This document shows, piece by piece, positions 7,104 to 36,154 of a stretch of 39,918 nucleotides of DNA (its first letter is position 1; each line of letters starts with the position of its first letter). The DNA is from a virus, in the UHGV virus genome UHGV-0076060; one strand, given 5' to 3'. The position numbers were made by a program, and so were the translations under genes. The notes beneath the pieces are model-generated. The model had not been told where the DNA came from and made no database searches. It worked only from the letters and a program-made list of their open reading frames with translations.

Positions 7104-7126
7104 AAAAAAAGGCCGCAAGAGCGGCC
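7102..7126. terminator. bidirectional terminator between convergent genes
   Basis: Hairpin GGCCGC-aaga-GCGGCC with A9 tract on one side and T-rich run on the other. Confidence 0.65.
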
Positions 7127-7854
7127 TATCGTTTCGCTTTGTGCTCGTCCCAGCACGTTTTGCACCATGCCATTAAGCCGTCCGCATTTTGATTATTAGA
7201 GTAAAAGCTGGTGCGTTTTCTGCGGACATTACAAATTGGGCACCACTTCATATGGCGTGTATTCTTTGGGCCATCGAGACACCTTGCACACCACTTAGTC
7301 AATCCATCTGGATTTTTTGACGATTTCCTGAATTTTTCATATGGAAGGTTTATTCTGCATCGCAAACACTGCTTACTACCACTTGAAACTCTGTTAGCTG
7401 ATTCTTCTTGTGATGGCGATACAGAAGGTATTCTTGCTGGCTCAGATACTACCTGAGGAGCTTTTTTAGGTAACTGAGACGATATGTCATCACCTGGGAA
7501 TCTGTCATGATATGCCGGACGCGTTGACACTCCAGGTGGAAGCTCTGCTGTAAATGGCTTTGGCTGAATCAGCGCCCTCTCTTTTGCTGACTCCTGTTGT
7601 TTATAATATGTCTGGATTACCGATATATCATAAGCAGGATGTACTGAAATATCCGGCGCATTACCTCCAGTTTTTTGAAACTGAGTGGAGGTGTGGTCTA
7701 TCACCTGTGTACGATTAATCGTTATTTCTCCATCTTCGGTCTTTATCGTTTTGCGATGATTAACGACTGTGCGATCAGAGACCTTAGTCCTGTTCTGGTT
7801 GATAACGTAAATAATCACCGTAACAACACCAACAACTATCCAGAAAACTTCCAT
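7126..7854 (-). CDS. membrane-anchored protein with tandem C-terminal CxxC...CxxC zinc-ribbon repeats (242 aa)
   Basis: N-terminal TM helix (VFWIVVGVVTVIIYVI), Pro/Ser-rich linker, two repeats of C-x2-C-x(17-19)-DGL-x3-WC-x2-C. Confidence 0.6.
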   Translation of the reverse strand: MEVFWIVVGVVTVIIYVINQNRTKVSDRTVVNHRKTIKTEDGEITINRTQVIDHTSTQFQKTGGNAPDISVHPAYDISVIQTYYKQQESAKERALIQPKPFTAELPPGVSTRPAYHDRFPGDDISSQLPKKAPQVVSEPARIPSVSPSQEESANRVSSGSKQCLRCRINLPYEKFRKSSKNPDGLTKWCARCLDGPKNTRHMKWCPICNVRRKRTSFYSNNQNADGLMAWCKTCWDEHKAKR

Positions 7855-7874
7855 TGCTTTTCCTCACAATAACA

Positions 7875-7889
7875 TTACCTTAAAGGTAA
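7875..7889. promoter_or_regulatory. ATTACC-N5-GGTAAT operator-like palindrome (copy 2)
   Basis: TTACCttaaaGGTAA about 20 bp upstream of the 7854 start codon. Confidence 0.5.
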
Positions 7890-7967
7890 TATCTTGCTTT
7901 CAGGTGATCAAGCGTTAAACGCAATCAACCAAATACGGTTGATTTTAATATTTCTCCGCGTTTATCA

Positions 7968-7982
7968 TTACCTTTTCGGTAA
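7968..7982. promoter_or_regulatory. ATTACC-N5-GGTAA operator-like palindrome (copy 3)
   Basis: TTACCttttcGGTAA, adjacent to a TTTACA -35-like hexamer. Confidence 0.45.
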
Positions 7983-8019
7983 ATTTACATCGCACTCATC
8001 TTGTGCCATAGTAATCGGG

Positions 8020-8096
8020 CACTGGCAAAATCCAGTGCCGGGATTGGCGTCCCGGATTACTAAAAGGCGCATTCACCGCGCAAGCGGTTTTTTTAT
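8020..8096 (+). ncRNA. candidate small RNA (about 75 nt) ending in an intrinsic terminator
   Basis: No plausible ORF; possible promoter (TTTACA...TAGTAAT) upstream; two internal hairpins (GGCACTGG/CCAGTGCC and CCGGGA/TCCCGG) and terminal hairpin ACCGC-gcaa-GCGGT plus T7 tract at 8075-8096. Confidence 0.3.
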
Positions 8097-8251
8097 GCGT
8101 ATAGCACGGCCACATTCGTATTATGGTGGGCTGTGTGGGGGCACCGAAAGGTGCGCCGGGTCCTTTTAGCCGGTTACGCCAACCCTGCACAGTTCACCAC
8201 CAACCGATTGGCGTCGGTAGTGGTGATTGACCAGACTAAAAGGTAACCACT

Positions 8252-8947
8252 ATGACAGCTACAAAAAGCACGTCCATTTTTTCTTTCGAATCCCAAGCCG
8301 ATATACGAGTAATCGTCATTAATGGTGAGCCATGGTTTATCGCTTCAGATGTTTGTCGGGCTATAGGCATAGCAAACCATCGAGATGCTGTTCGAAAACT
8401 TGATGATGATGAGAAGGGCGTCGCTTCAACCGACACCCCTGGCGGTGAGCAAGAATCGATCATCATCTCCGAGTCAGGCCTCTACACACTGATCCTCCGC
8501 TGCCGCGACGCAGTGACACCAGGCACTATCCCCTACCGCTTTCGTAAATGGGTTACAGGTGAGGTTCTTCCTCAGATCCGCCGCACCGGAAGTTACATTA
8601 AAAACTCGCTCCCGCAGGAAGAACGCATAAAGATGGTTGCCGACCAGGTTGCAAACGCCACAGCATCAGCAGTGATGCAGGCGATGAAGATAGAGAACAA
8701 AACCTACAGTGCCCCACTGAAGCCCGGCTACCGTAGCCTGATTCATTCGCCGTCTGGTGTTCTCGGCCTGACGGAGAACTCACTGCTGATGAATCTGCTG
8801 AACCAGTTACAGGAAGACGGGCACGATGTATCGGGAGCGGCGGCGGAGCTGACCACCATGTTCTGCTACATCGTCGGTGTGAGCAAATGCCTGCGTGATA
8901 TCCAGACCCACGCGGAGTACATCAACGACAAGGCAGGGTTCTTCTGA
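8252..8947 (+). CDS. Bro-N domain protein, antirepressor-like (231 aa)
   Basis: N-terminal Bro-N/KilA-N-like sequence (FESQADIRVIVINGEPWFIASDVCRAIG...FRKWVTGEVLPQIRRTG); C-terminal domain homologous to the 85-aa protein at 6846..7103. Confidence 0.75.
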   Translation: MTATKSTSIFSFESQADIRVIVINGEPWFIASDVCRAIGIANHRDAVRKLDDDEKGVASTDTPGGEQESIIISESGLYTLILRCRDAVTPGTIPYRFRKWVTGEVLPQIRRTGSYIKNSLPQEERIKMVADQVANATASAVMQAMKIENKTYSAPLKPGYRSLIHSPSGVLGLTENSLLMNLLNQLQEDGHDVSGAAAELTTMFCYIVGVSKCLRDIQTHAEYINDKAGFF

Positions 8948-26454: not shown

Positions 26455-26544
26455 ATCAATGACTCCGTACGCAATTAAATTATTACCAATTTAACCACAT
26501 ATGATTTATTTATCGTAGGCAGTTGACATTTAACGCATGAATTA

Positions 26545-26881: not shown

Positions 26882-26958
26882 GTGGCATTAGCTCAGTTGG
26901 ACAGAGCAACCGCCTTCTAAGCGGTTGGTCGCAGGTTCGAATCCTGCATGCCACGCCA
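26882..26958 (+). tRNA. tRNA-Arg (anticodon UCU, reads AGA)
   Basis: Manual cloverleaf: 7-bp acceptor GTGGCAT/ATGCCAC, D-stem GCTC/GAGC, anticodon stem ACCGC/GCGGT with loop CTTCTAA, T-arm GCAGG-TTCGAAT-CCTGC, discriminator G, encoded CCA. Confidence 0.85.
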
Positions 26959-35569: not shown

Positions 35570-36154
35570 ATGAAAAGTATCCAGGACGTCCGCAGGCAAA
35601 ATCTCAACGACTTGATCGACCGTGAATTCAATGGTGTTCAGACGCGGATGGCAGAAAAACTTGGAACTCAGGCAAATCTGGTAAACCGCTGGGCTCTTGG
35701 CAAGAAGGTTATCGGCGACCAGGTTGCGCGAAAAATTGAAGCTGCCGCCAATAAACCCCGTAACTGGCTTGATATCGATCGCTCGCTTTCTCAGGAAGGT
35801 TTTCAGCCTGTCGGCCCAAGCGACATTGGTCAGCTGGCGGCTCACAACCTGGAACGCTGGATGAGCGAAAGCCGCGACCTTTCAACACAGGGAAAACTTC
35901 ACCGCGCATCCGGCGTCGCCCAGGTGACAATCAGCCGCCTGTTAAACAATGAGGTCAGCGTTTCCATTTCCACCCTGGAGAATGTTGCATCCGCATTCGG
36001 GCGTCACGGCTATGAATTACTGATTCACCCGCACGACCCTGCGACCATCAACTATGACCGCTCGCGCTACGCATTGTTACCCGAAACCGAGAAAGCAAAG
36101 ATCGAAAGTTACATTGAATTTGTCATCAACCAGAACGAAAAAAACAAACAATAA
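35570..36154 (+). CDS. cI-like repressor candidate with two HTH motifs and no recognisable autocleavage domain (194 aa)
   Basis: HTH-like segments (QTRMAEKLGTQANLVNRW; LHRASGVAQVTISRLL); monocistronic with own terminator; no Ala-Gly / Ser-Lys S24-type motifs seen by eye. Confidence 0.55.
   Translation: MKSIQDVRRQNLNDLIDREFNGVQTRMAEKLGTQANLVNRWALGKKVIGDQVARKIEAAANKPRNWLDIDRSLSQEGFQPVGPSDIGQLAAHNLERWMSESRDLSTQGKLHRASGVAQVTISRLLNNEVSVSISTLENVASAFGRHGYELLIHPHDPATINYDRSRYALLPETEKAKIESYIEFVINQNEKNKQ

Follow-up and report, generated by a model that had tools for sequence, protein, structure and literature searches.

Upstream of the Bro-N gene of the virus genome UHGV-0076060 lies a stretch (7900-8250) in which a phage-encoded small RNA had been predicted. 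The question is what this stretch encodes and how it bears on the gene downstream. All coordinates below refer to the window, that is, the whole stretch of 39,918 nucleotides that was analysed. By its sequence, the element is the IsrK small RNA followed by the C4 antisense RNA, an already known two-RNA antirepressor switch. The same switch silences the antirepressor gene in phages P1, Gifsy-1 and APSE. The region very probably is an immI-type RNA switch governing the phage's own Bro-N antirepressor.

Two RNAs upstream of the Bro-N gene

The two RNAs and the gene downstream of them are as follows.

8019-8094, plus strand: IsrK small RNA (a1b1 RNA), Rfam RF01394 isrK, 77.9 bits, model positions 1-77
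8019-8038, plus strand: IsrK hairpin 1 (MFE and centroid folds)
8039-8054, plus strand: IsrK hairpin 2 (MFE and centroid folds)
8075-8088, plus strand: IsrK terminator hairpin, preceded by a single-stranded linker; U-run at 8088-8094
8119-8204, plus strand: C4 antisense RNA element, Rfam RF01695, 77.7 bits, model positions 1-87
8252-8947, plus strand: Bro-N domain antirepressor, 231 aa (PF02498, E = 2.3e-21; phrog_130 anti-repressor Ant, E = 3.7e-63)

The terminated small RNA of about 75 nt that had been proposed at 8020-8096 is a full-length match to isrK, above the curated gathering threshold of 50 bits. Its hairpin with a T7 tract was also found, the stem ACCGC-GCAA-GCGGT at 8075-8088 being followed by seven T at 8088-8094. 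Three hairpins form in the predicted fold of 8019-8094 (-28.0 kcal/mol, z = -2.43 relative to shuffled sequences). This is the architecture of isrK, in which two hairpins at the 5' end are joined by a single-stranded linker to a Rho-independent terminator. The context is that of the isrK type locus, with a C4-like element and an antirepressor gene directly downstream. The Gifsy-1 homologue of IsrK was detected experimentally as a small RNA (PMC4825925). The model c4-a1b1 (RF03163) matches at 8006-8058 with 45.1 bits (E = 4e-10), marginally under its threshold of 46.7. The stronger isrK match spans the DNA of this sub-threshold match.

The remaining GC hairpins noted in the original prediction belong to C4, a full-length match whose score is to be compared with a gathering threshold of 45 bits. 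The block 8119-8204 is strongly structured (-45.6 kcal/mol, z = -4.70), and none of 200 shuffled sequences folded equally well. A long closing stem surrounds hairpin 1 (GCACC-GAAA-GGUGC) and hairpin 2 (GCCGG...CCGGU). The plus strand is the structured one, since the minus strand of the same region reaches only z = -1.2 and is not unusually structured. The mature C4 is predicted to be a 77-nt RNA at 8125-8201, its ends being taken from an alignment to the annotated c4 of P1 (L125 3344-3420). P1 was not among the matches of a BLAST search that used the Rfam C4 consensus.

Lack of structural conservation in related phages would have counted against an RNA. The relatives retain both folds: compensatory changes were observed in 6 of 11 IsrK pairs (6 of 7 in hairpin 1; 65 sequences) and in 19 of 27 C4 pairs. 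RNAalifold missed the IsrK terminator hairpin in the alignment of relatives because MAFFT misaligned the variable stem; the hairpin and the U-run were seen by eye in every sequence. Membership of the two RNAs in their families and both folds are thus solid computational results.

Complementary words in the RNAs and the Bro-N leader

IsrK, C4 and the leader of the Bro-N gene share two short words, a and b.

8044-8050, plus strand: a1, UUGGCGU, loop of IsrK hairpin 2; complementary to a'
8060-8067, plus strand: b1, CUAAAAGG, single-stranded IsrK linker; complementary to b'
8162-8169, plus strand: b', CCUUUUAG, loop of C4 hairpin 2; complementary to b1 and b2
8176-8182, plus strand: a', ACGCCAA, single-stranded C4 junction; complementary to a1 and a2
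8208-8214, plus strand: a2, UUGGCGU, Bro-N leader, 4 nt beyond the C4 element
8236-8243, plus strand: b2, CUAAAAGG, over the Shine-Dalgarno box AAGG, ending 8 nt before the Bro-N AUG
8217-8253, plus strand: predicted leader hairpin GUAGUGGU / ACCACUAU (MFE -9.7 kcal/mol)

The identity of the leader and IsrK extends over a 10-nt block (8206-8215 and 8042-8051) and a 9-nt block (8235-8243 and 8059-8067). The sequences GATTGGCGTC and ACTAAAAGG occur exactly in IsrK and in the leader, and their reverse complements in C4. The composite a+b pattern was found at three places only in the 39.9 kb (IsrK, the complement of C4, the leader), against 0 expected; the same pattern search of the window revealed no extra composite site that could be a further target of C4. 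This is the arrangement expected of a C4 RNA: a' and b' are complementary to a2 and b2 downstream, b2 lies at the ribosome-binding site, and a1 and b1 lie upstream.

Related modules were sought by a scan of viral contigs with a 14-base pattern. About one third of the matches were chance matches (without a terminator and without C4), and these were excluded by demanding a three-way match of a. There remained 76 related modules in which a matched at all three sites over 7 nt or more. They contain 14 different a-words and 42 b-words in 52 combinations; the three copies co-vary, and the a and b words reassort independently of each other. The three-way complementarity and its covariation are, like the folds, shown by the sequences. 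In most relatives, some 8-14 nt separate the end of b2 from the start codon of the ORF that follows.

In the predicted leader hairpin the first two bases of the AUG are paired, and b2 and the Shine-Dalgarno box are exposed in the loop. An equivalent hairpin is predicted in closely related leaders of the Bro-N type. In the predicted folds of 65 non-redundant leaders, 36 pair at least four of the six nucleotides before the AUG.

Two things had been overlooked in the original prediction. Firstly, the region contains two separate RNAs, which show complementarity to one another as well as to the ribosome-binding site of Bro-N. Secondly, the element is not new, and IsrK, C4 and the Bro-N leader make up one antisense circuit.

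Promoters and operator-like palindromes

Two promoter-like sites and two copies of the palindrome ATTACC-N5-GGTAA precede IsrK.

7874-7890, both strands: operator-like palindrome ATTACCTTAAAGGTAAT, exact motif match, putative function
7939-7968, plus strand: upstream promoter-like site TTGATT-18-TATCAT, 9/12 consensus match, weak
7967-7983, both strands: operator-like palindrome ATTACC-TTTTC-GGTAAA, adjoining the -35 hexamer of the IsrK promoter
7984-8012, plus strand: IsrK sigma-70 promoter TTTACA-17-CATAGT (-35 at 7984-7989, TG at 8004-8005, -10 at 8007-8012)

The promoter-like element previously seen to overlap a palindrome, TTGATT-18-TATCAT, does overlap ATTACCTTTTCGGTAA (7967-7982), and its predicted start at about 7975 falls within the palindrome. 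Sites of this kind are not enriched relative to shuffled sequences. By analogy, it is possibly the counterpart of the repressor-controlled promoter P51a of P1. The promoter at 7984-8012 is better placed, as its predicted start at about 8019 is the first base of the isrK model. Across 69 non-redundant loci it recurs at a constant distance (T-35 in 68, A-11 in 68, T-7 in all 69, G-14 in 58), which shows that it is conserved. The annotated promoter P51b of P1 (TTGACC-17-TATAGT) has the same geometry. From the terminator onwards to the start of Bro-N, the promoter scan of the window found no further promoter-like site on the plus strand.

The palindrome is about 60-fold enriched, with 25 strand-matches at 13 sites in the whole window against 0.4 expected. 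The copy at 7874-7890 lies just upstream of a divergent 242-aa ORF (7126-7854, minus strand) and 93 bp from the copy at the IsrK promoter. The latter occupies positions -52 to -36 relative to the IsrK 5' end. Of the 69 non-redundant regions upstream of IsrK in the relatives, 17 have the same motif at -52, and phiV10 carries TTTACCGCAAAGGTAAA at the corresponding position. According to the P1 record, an operator of the C1 repressor is located at the equivalent position in P1. Because the palindrome abuts the -35 hexamer, it is plausible that the phage repressor acts on the IsrK promoter through it; a candidate to bind it is the HTH protein encoded at 35570-36154. The position of its centre, about -44, is compatible with activation as well as with repression. 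Matches to the lysM-TM7 and CRISPR-DR57 models at about 7848-7984 are far under threshold (E = 0.36 and 0.72), reflect the palindromes and were rejected.

Known switches and possible modes of regulation

The immI region of P1 and P7 has the same order of parts, which in P1 are the Oc4 operator, P51a/P51b, a1, b1, c4, a2, b2, icd and ant1/ant2. The P1 details are those of its annotated record and of citations in other papers; according to the record and a cited paper, c4 represses the synthesis of Ant. The P1 c4 is a 77-nt RNA processed from a precursor by RNase P, and the C4 here has the same predicted mature length. The distances are similar: a1 and b1 are 14 nt apart in P1 and 16 nt here, a2 begins 4 nt after the end of c4 in both, a2 and b2 are separated by 29 and 28 nt, respectively, and in either phage about 10 nt lie between b2 and a start codon. 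The C4 model gives 68.8 bits for P1 and 77.7 here, both above threshold. The a1b1 region of P1 scores 51.0 bits with c4-a1b1 and 35 bits with isrK (E = 7e-6), and it has a hairpin and a U-run of its own. In both phages the promoter has a repressor operator, here an operator-like palindrome, beside it; however, the operator sequences and the repressors are unrelated. The antirepressors also differ, P1 Ant1 having an ANT/KilAC domain and the protein here Bro-N. In P1, C4 targets the ribosome-binding site of icd, a small gene for a cell-division inhibitor to which ant is coupled, whereas here b2 lies on that of the antirepressor itself and there is no icd. Since other members of the RNA family show both arrangements, the icd-ant pair characterises P1 rather than the family. 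Finally, the a word is UUGACAG in P1 and UUGGCGU here, and the b words differ too; therefore the two phages would be heteroimmune.

In APSE of Hamiltonella (LR794151, APSE-7), isrK, C4 (with a'/b') and BRO-N are annotated in tandem, in the same gene order as here. The RNAs are about 72% identical to those described here, and the Bro-N proteins 26% identical over the domain. According to Rouil et al. (2020, PMC7313666), the a'/b' regions of APSE have their match ahead of the BRO gene. A second match lies in the APSE DNA polymerase gene (PMC7313666), with no counterpart composite site in our window.

For UHGV-0076060, each of the following regulatory steps, including the processing of C4, its direct action on the Bro-N Shine-Dalgarno box and the sign of the operator control, is proposed by analogy. 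Experiments on Gifsy-1 are the source for the two isoforms (short and long), for the a1-a' pairing and for the activation of antirepressor translation by IsrK, all of which would carry over. The sigma-70 promoter would initiate at about 8019, and the majority of transcripts would end at the weak hairpin and U7 terminator, yielding the 76-nt IsrK. The read-through RNA would run across C4 into the Bro-N gene, and C4 would be excised from it, as expected from homology with P1. The hairpin-2 loop (b') and the junction (a') of C4 may then pair with b2 and a2 of the leader and mask the Shine-Dalgarno box. Translation of the antirepressor would thus be prevented in cis, and also on superinfecting genomes that share the a/b type. 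Since IsrK holds copies of both words, it may pair with the same segments of C4. Within the read-through transcript, such pairing would lock an inactive fold. Free IsrK in excess would compete for a' and b' and free the ribosome-binding site, so that the antirepressor would be made and antagonise the prophage repressor. The phage repressor would probably modulate the whole cassette via the palindrome at the -35 hexamer.

One possibility, which we put forward tentatively, is that IsrK and C4 are a dedicated decoy/antisense pair, the two exchangeable words serving as a barcode for silencing and release of antirepressors between co-resident or superinfecting phages. In the phiV10-like lineage C4 would act directly on the Shine-Dalgarno box, with no relay by Icd or orf45, and the same-frame ORF over C4 would be a by-product, its AUG being destroyed as C4 is processed. 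Some points count against the regulatory scheme of the preceding paragraph. If each initiation yields IsrK, and C4 arises from read-through transcripts alone, a simple decoy model would predict constant derepression, and therefore RNA stabilities or the cis fold must matter. In Gifsy-1, a co-expressed C4-containing segment enhanced the effect of IsrK and did not counteract it (PMC4825925).

Gifsy-1 of Salmonella is the closest characterised homologue. Its locus isrK-orf45(STnc1160)-anrP-isrJ (isrK 34316-34240, C4 34214-34131, anrP ATG 34076) gives 79.3 bits with isrK (77.9 here), 69.0 with C4 (77.7 here) and 48.1 with c4-a1b1, the last above the threshold of 46.7. In both phages a2 and b2 follow C4 and precede an antirepressor-like gene. 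The a words UUGGCGU / ACGCCAA are identical. Hershko-Shalev et al. (2016, PMC4825925) proved the a1-a' pairing in Gifsy-1 with the compensatory mutants G28/C162 and G31/C159, and these pairs map exactly onto a1-a' here (8046-8180 and 8049-8177). On the other hand, the b word is UCACCG in Gifsy-1 and CUAAAAGG here, the controlled protein is of the ORF6N type there and Bro-N here with no detectable sequence similarity, and isrJ downstream and antQ upstream are present in Gifsy-1 only. Moreover, Gifsy-1 is a lambdoid prophage, whereas the phage here is a phiV10-like podovirus.

The Gifsy-1 model involves no repression of the ribosome-binding site by C4 in trans; it rests on alternative folds of the long transcript and on coupling of orf45 and anrP (PMC4825925). 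The strict form of this model would hold for our phage if C4 were not a free antisense RNA, the read-through transcript, with its IsrK sequences paired in cis to the C4 region (structure A), stayed translationally dead until invaded by free IsrK, and translation of the ORF over C4 then opened the Bro-N start. This depends on the following ORF.

8123-8230, plus strand: 35-codon ORF, AUG at the 5' edge of C4, stop 21 nt before the Bro-N AUG; possibly translated

By its position this ORF is the counterpart of orf45. We consider the strict model rather doubtful here, even though it comes from direct experiments in the closest characterised homologue (PMC4825925), the same AUG with an open 35-codon frame is present, the a1-a' pairing is identical, and the 35-aa product matches a PHROG family (phrog_20442, of unknown function; no Pfam match), which we read as ORF calls overlying C4 DNA. 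The 45 codons of orf45 extend to a stop overlapping the anrP AUG, whereas the frame here ends well short of Bro-N. In the relatives the ORF over C4 ranges from 3 to more than 100 codons (open for at least 100 codons in 35 of 61 non-redundant modules, and stopping within 20 in 15 of the 61). On this evidence, an ORF of such variable length cannot be called a conserved gene. An RNase P-type cut, as suggested by the P1 c4 alignment, would fall inside the AUG of the ORF. Finally, the strict model leaves the co-variation of a2/b2 with a'/b' unexplained.

The authors of the Gifsy-1 study named seqA-CI-seqC of the satellite phage P4 as the structural analogue of IsrK (PMC4825925). By description the logic is the same as here: a small RNA processed from an untranslated leader pairs with two repeated complementary sites that flank it upstream and downstream on the same transcript. 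In P4 the output is premature transcription termination of the replication genes, and not a block of an antirepressor ribosome-binding site. Pairing of C4 with a2/b2 or a1/b1 might likewise cause a premature or Rho-dependent stop before Bro-N, as in P4 or in polarity of the P1 type, the output then being the abundance of the mRNA and not its translation alone. Besides the analogy, IsrK of Gifsy-1 supplied in trans raised a transcriptional fusion 8-fold and a translational fusion 139-fold (PMC4825925), and the P1 record states that icd is apparently required for ant expression. However, no icd-like ORF separates C4 from Bro-N, no terminator-like site was found at 8204-8252 on the plus strand, and the location of b2 on the Shine-Dalgarno box, 8 nt from the AUG, has the geometry of a translational block. 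Termination is therefore unlikely to be the main output.

It is very unlikely that IsrK chiefly acts in trans on host mRNAs with Hfq, its proximity to Bro-N being incidental. Rfam calls the family 'isrK Hfq binding RNA', and the layout is of the usual Hfq type, with an A/U-rich single-stranded stretch ahead of a U-tailed terminator. However, at 76 loci both exposed words of IsrK change together with the adjacent C4 and leader, a pattern to be expected only with the local RNAs as targets, and a host target could not follow 14 x 42 word variants.

The last candidates for a different reading are the mechanical ORFs of the region.

7894-8169, plus strand: 91-aa mechanical ORF with a TTG start

The others are of 64 aa and 40 aa (minus strand) and of 35 and 37 aa over C4. 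The original prediction had seen no plausible ORF; mechanical ones are present, with no meaningful Pfam match for the 91-aa, 64-aa, 37-aa and 40-aa minus-strand ORFs and no PHROG match for the 91-aa and 64-aa ORFs, and the latter two were rejected as genes. That there is no RNA gene at all, and the region is a mere terminator with a structured 5' UTR or codes for the 91-aa or the 64-aa protein, can be practically dismissed: such ORFs exist and some database records carry 'hypothetical protein' calls over this DNA, but two covariance-model matches lie far above threshold, the stems show compensatory base changes, and the 91-aa ORF would cross a promoter and the U7 terminator. A cis-antisense RNA of the P22 sar/ant type was also rejected: there is no minus-strand promoter-like site near 8200-8300, both RNA matches are on the plus strand, and the minus strand of the C4 region has a z-score of -1.2.

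The IsrK-C4 system was known before, and its description here leaves the current understanding unchanged and extends a known mechanism to one further phage lineage. In the lineage of phiV10 and TL-2011b it is unannotated. The Bro-N homologues in the phiV10 and TL-2011b records are named anti-repressor or anti-immunity protein, and the Bro-N gene is the only feature named at this locus in these records and in the RefSeq E. coli matches listed. Two regulatory RNAs with their target sites can thus be added to the annotation and spurious small ORF calls removed. The cassette would decide whether the antirepressor is produced, and so whether induction, of this prophage and possibly of neighbouring ones, proceeds with no SOS cleavage of the repressor. 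Matches at the megablast level were found in 941 of 5,426 complete E. coli genomes, with three places at most in any one genome. Many Stx-converting phages have such a match as well; thus the a/b word types could predict groups of cross-immunity and cross-induction among prophages.

Structured RNAs upstream of the Bro-N gene

We analysed the gap between a divergent 242-aa ORF (7126-7854, minus strand) and the Bro-N antirepressor gene (8252-8947, plus strand). The Rfam scan, which took in the whole window at curated thresholds, gave three matches: isrK, C4 antisense RNA, and one tRNA-Arg. The first two lie in this gap:

8019-8094, plus strand: small RNA IsrK (RF01394), 77.9 bits, threshold 50, full model
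8119-8204, plus strand: C4 antisense RNA (RF01695), 77.7 bits, threshold 45, full model

The original prediction of a small RNA, made from the raw sequence, is correct: its segment of about 75 nt (8020-8096) with a hairpin and a T7 tract matches IsrK to the base, and the other GC hairpins it noted are borne out as the second RNA, C4. Both RNAs adopt the folds expected from their own family models. The folding energy is -28.0 kcal/mol for IsrK (z = -2.43) and -45.6 kcal/mol for C4 (z = -4.70, with none of 200 shuffles equally good); the opposite strand of C4 has no notable structure (z = -1.2). The IsrK terminator is ACCGC-GCAA-GCGGU followed by U7. The structures are conserved in relatives, with compensatory changes in 6 of 11 pairs of IsrK and 19 of 27 pairs of C4 (RNAalifold). 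The c4-a1b1 motif (RF03163) scores 45.1 bits in the window, slightly below its threshold of 46.7. The C4 and c4-a1b1 motifs were both catalogued earlier (Weinberg et al. 2010, PMC2864571).

The element is already known. It corresponds to two curated RNA families; homologues have been studied experimentally, and the three-part arrangement is annotated in public phage records. The window genome is phiV10/TL-2011b-like (Uetakevirus). The region is 97-99% identical to TL-2011b and phiV10, whose records annotate only the antirepressor gene here, plus a "terminator" in phiV10. Megablast-level matches to 7960-8260 are present in 941 of 5,426 complete E. coli genomes, at up to 3 places per genome; among the best E. 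coli matches listed, the Bro-N CDS is the only annotated feature, and neither RNA is annotated. The practical value lies in improved annotation of this phage lineage.

The 242-aa ORF belongs, over its full length, to phrog_6762, a family without assigned function, and its C-terminal Cys-rich segment resembles the zinc fingers of endonuclease VII, Lar, and Stc1. This gene is absent from phiV10, where the junction upstream of the IsrK promoter differs.

Shared words and their covariation

Two exact blocks are common to IsrK and the Bro-N leader, and the reverse complements of both shared words are present in C4:

8042-8051 and 8206-8215: GATTGGCGTC, containing words a1 (IsrK) and a2 (leader)
8059-8067 and 8235-8243: ACTAAAAGG, containing words b1 (IsrK) and b2 (leader)
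8162-8169, plus strand: b' CCTTTTAG, loop of C4 hairpin 2
8176-8182, plus strand: a' ACGCCAA, single-stranded junction of C4

The composite TTGGCGT-N(5-35)-CTAAAAGG is present at only three places in 39.9 kb: IsrK, the leader, and (on the complement) C4; shuffles expect 0. The b2 word overlies the AAGG Shine-Dalgarno box and ends 8 nt upstream of the Bro-N ATG. In the predicted leader hairpin (8217-8253) the first two bases of the AUG are paired and b2 is shown in the loop.

Of the 120 loci returned by a pattern scan of viral contigs, about two thirds are true modules. A three-way match of a (a1, its reverse complement in C4, and a2) of at least 7 nt was found in 76 modules. A three-way b match is present as well in 65 of these, reaching at least 7 nt in 47. 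The modules have 14 a-words and 42 b-words in 52 combinations, a given b-word being found with different a-words and the reverse. Such covariation across three sites argues strongly, on comparative grounds, for their interaction. Family membership, complementarity, covariation, and promoter conservation are established by the present analysis. The word types may be of use in predicting prophage cross-talk.

In the modules, b2 mostly ends about 8-14 nt upstream of the start codon of the next ORF, which encodes an antirepressor-type protein of 140-240 aa or is an ORF of 57-81 aa. Size and position suggest that the latter is Icd-like. A large lambdoid/Stx-type subgroup (L010, L020, L021, L028, and many others) has a 40-90-nt insert with its own hairpin between IsrK and C4; in the same subgroup b2 precedes the 57-81-aa ORF, not the antirepressor directly. 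These loci are architectural variants of the cassette.

Candidate mode of regulation

The GenBank record of phage P1 has the same layout as the window: the C1 operator Oc4, the promoters P51a and P51b, the target sites "putative a1" and "b1", c4, the target sites a2 and b2, icd, and ant1. The c4 RNA of P1 is annotated as 77 nt; it is stated to repress Ant synthesis (PMC8546580; also the P1 record). In Rfam, P1 C4 scores 68.8 bits, and the P1 a1b1 region scores both as c4-a1b1 (RF03163, 51 bits) and as isrK (35 bits, E = 7e-6), with the hairpin and U-run present. Thus IsrK is the a1b1 segment plus its terminator.

Intervals between elements in P1 and in the window
a1 to b1: P1 14 nt, window 16 nt
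c4 end to a2: P1 4 nt, window 4 nt
a2 to b2: P1 29 nt, window 28 nt

The best-supported reading, which we consider probable, is as follows. Firstly, one promoter would give both IsrK and a read-through transcript. Secondly, C4 would be excised from the read-through RNA (predicted mature form 8125-8201, 77 nt, from alignment to P1 c4), and a' and b' would then pair with a2 and b2, blocking the Bro-N ribosome-binding site. Finally, IsrK, bearing the same words, would compete for C4, giving an inactive fold in cis and activation in trans.

The type IsrK locus, in Gifsy-1, is tandem as in the window: isrK, C4, a2 GATTGGCGTC, b2 TCACCG beside GGAGGG, then the anrP ATG. There, the short RNA and the read-through isrK-orf45-anrP mRNA both come from the isrK promoter, the long form is not translated unaided, short IsrK activates it in trans (139-fold for a translational fusion), and compensatory mutants demonstrated G28-C162 and G31-C159 pairing (Hershko-Shalev et al. 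2016, PMC4825925). Counted along the Gifsy-1 sequence, G28 and G31 lie within UUGGCGU and C162 and C159 within ACGCCAA. This is the a1-a' pair, identical in the window (equivalents 8046-8180 and 8049-8177). Experimental proof of the isoforms, of a1-a' pairing, and of IsrK activation exists for Gifsy-1 only; these features would apply here by homology. The stable "STnc1160" species of Gifsy-1 (3' of IsrK) and "orf45" both overlap the C4 element.

In the APSE-7 record, isrK, C4 with a' and b', and the BRO-N gene are annotated in the same order as in the window, and the APSE a' and b' regions match sequence upstream of the BRO gene (PMC7313666). The controlled protein is Bro-N in the window and APSE, ORF6N in Gifsy-1, and, downstream of Icd, ANT/KilAC in P1. 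As a module, the RNA cassette is portable.

The chief alternative is the Gifsy-1 model in its strict form, in which ribosomes translate an ORF whose start is the AUG on the 5' edge of C4. Such an ORF is present in the window (8123-8230, plus strand, 35 codons). However, it ends 21 nt short of the Bro-N AUG, and a P1-like processing cut would fall within its own AUG. The length of this frame also varies: among 61 non-redundant modules, it is open for at least 100 codons in 35 and closed within 20 in 15. We regard this model as doubtful. In Gifsy-1, co-expression of a C4-containing segment made the IsrK effect stronger, not blunted, which counts against a simple decoy model (PMC4825925). A termination-based output, as in P4, is unlikely. 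The three-site covariation is difficult to square with a host mRNA being the chief target of IsrK.

The claim that the stretch has no plausible ORF is supported: the mechanical ORFs scanned have no meaningful protein-family match, with one exception. The frame of 35 aa across C4 matches phrog_20442, a family without assigned function that, in our reading, consists of ORF predictions made on C4 DNA. In several phage records, long CDSs named "immunity region" or "antirepressor" are annotated across C4.

IsrK promoter, palindromes, and candidate repressor

7984-7989 (TTTACA), 8004-8005 (TG), 8007-8012 (CATAGT), plus strand: predicted IsrK promoter

In the upstream regions of 69 non-redundant modules, a sigma-70 promoter is kept at constant spacing from the 5' end of IsrK, with T at -35 in 68, A at -11 in 68, T at -7 in all 69, and G at -14 in 58. 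The geometry in the window is that of P1 P51b (TTGACC-17-TATAGT). No further promoter-like site was found on the plus strand between this promoter and the Bro-N gene, so transcription should have to pass the IsrK terminator to reach C4 and Bro-N.

The ATTACC-N5-GGTAA palindrome at 7967-7983 adjoins the -35 hexamer. There are 13 such sites in the window, all in intergenic gaps near gene starts (25 strand-matches against 0.4 expected):

Palindrome starts: 6753, 7874, 7967, 9012, 26544, 29734, 29752, 33149, 33211, 35114, 35499, 36211, 36273

Distances of 62, 62, and 93 bp between neighbouring palindromes are multiples of about 31 bp, which suggests same-helical-face binding (cooperativity or looping) by one phage repressor of many scattered promoters, similar to C1 in P1. 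Of the 69 non-redundant upstream regions, 17 have a palindrome at -52, and phiV10 has a degenerate copy at the corresponding position. The upstream promoter-like site of the original prediction (7939-7968) has its predicted transcription start within the palindrome; together with the IsrK promoter it resembles the P1 pair of repressor-controlled P51a and proximal P51b. Since the layout is similar, control of the IsrK promoter by a repressor at this putative operator is plausible. The palindrome centre, at about -44, is compatible with repression and activation alike.

An HTH_3 / Cro-C1-type protein of 194 aa (35570-36154, plus strand; Pfam E = 1e-9; phrog_8 transcriptional regulator) is the obvious candidate for the repressor that reads the palindrome, which would also make it the probable target of the Bro-N antirepressor. 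Its gene is flanked by three palindromes (35499, 36211, 36273).

An 8-bp inverted repeat, AATCAACC-N6-GGTTGATT (7923-7944, plus strand), is followed by a T-rich tail and has a terminator-like score. No plus-strand gene ends there, and the repeat's 3' arm forms the -35 hexamer of the promoter-like site at 7939-7968. The phage-borne tRNA-Arg (anticodon UCU; 26882-26958, plus strand) has the palindrome at 26544 about 320 bp upstream.
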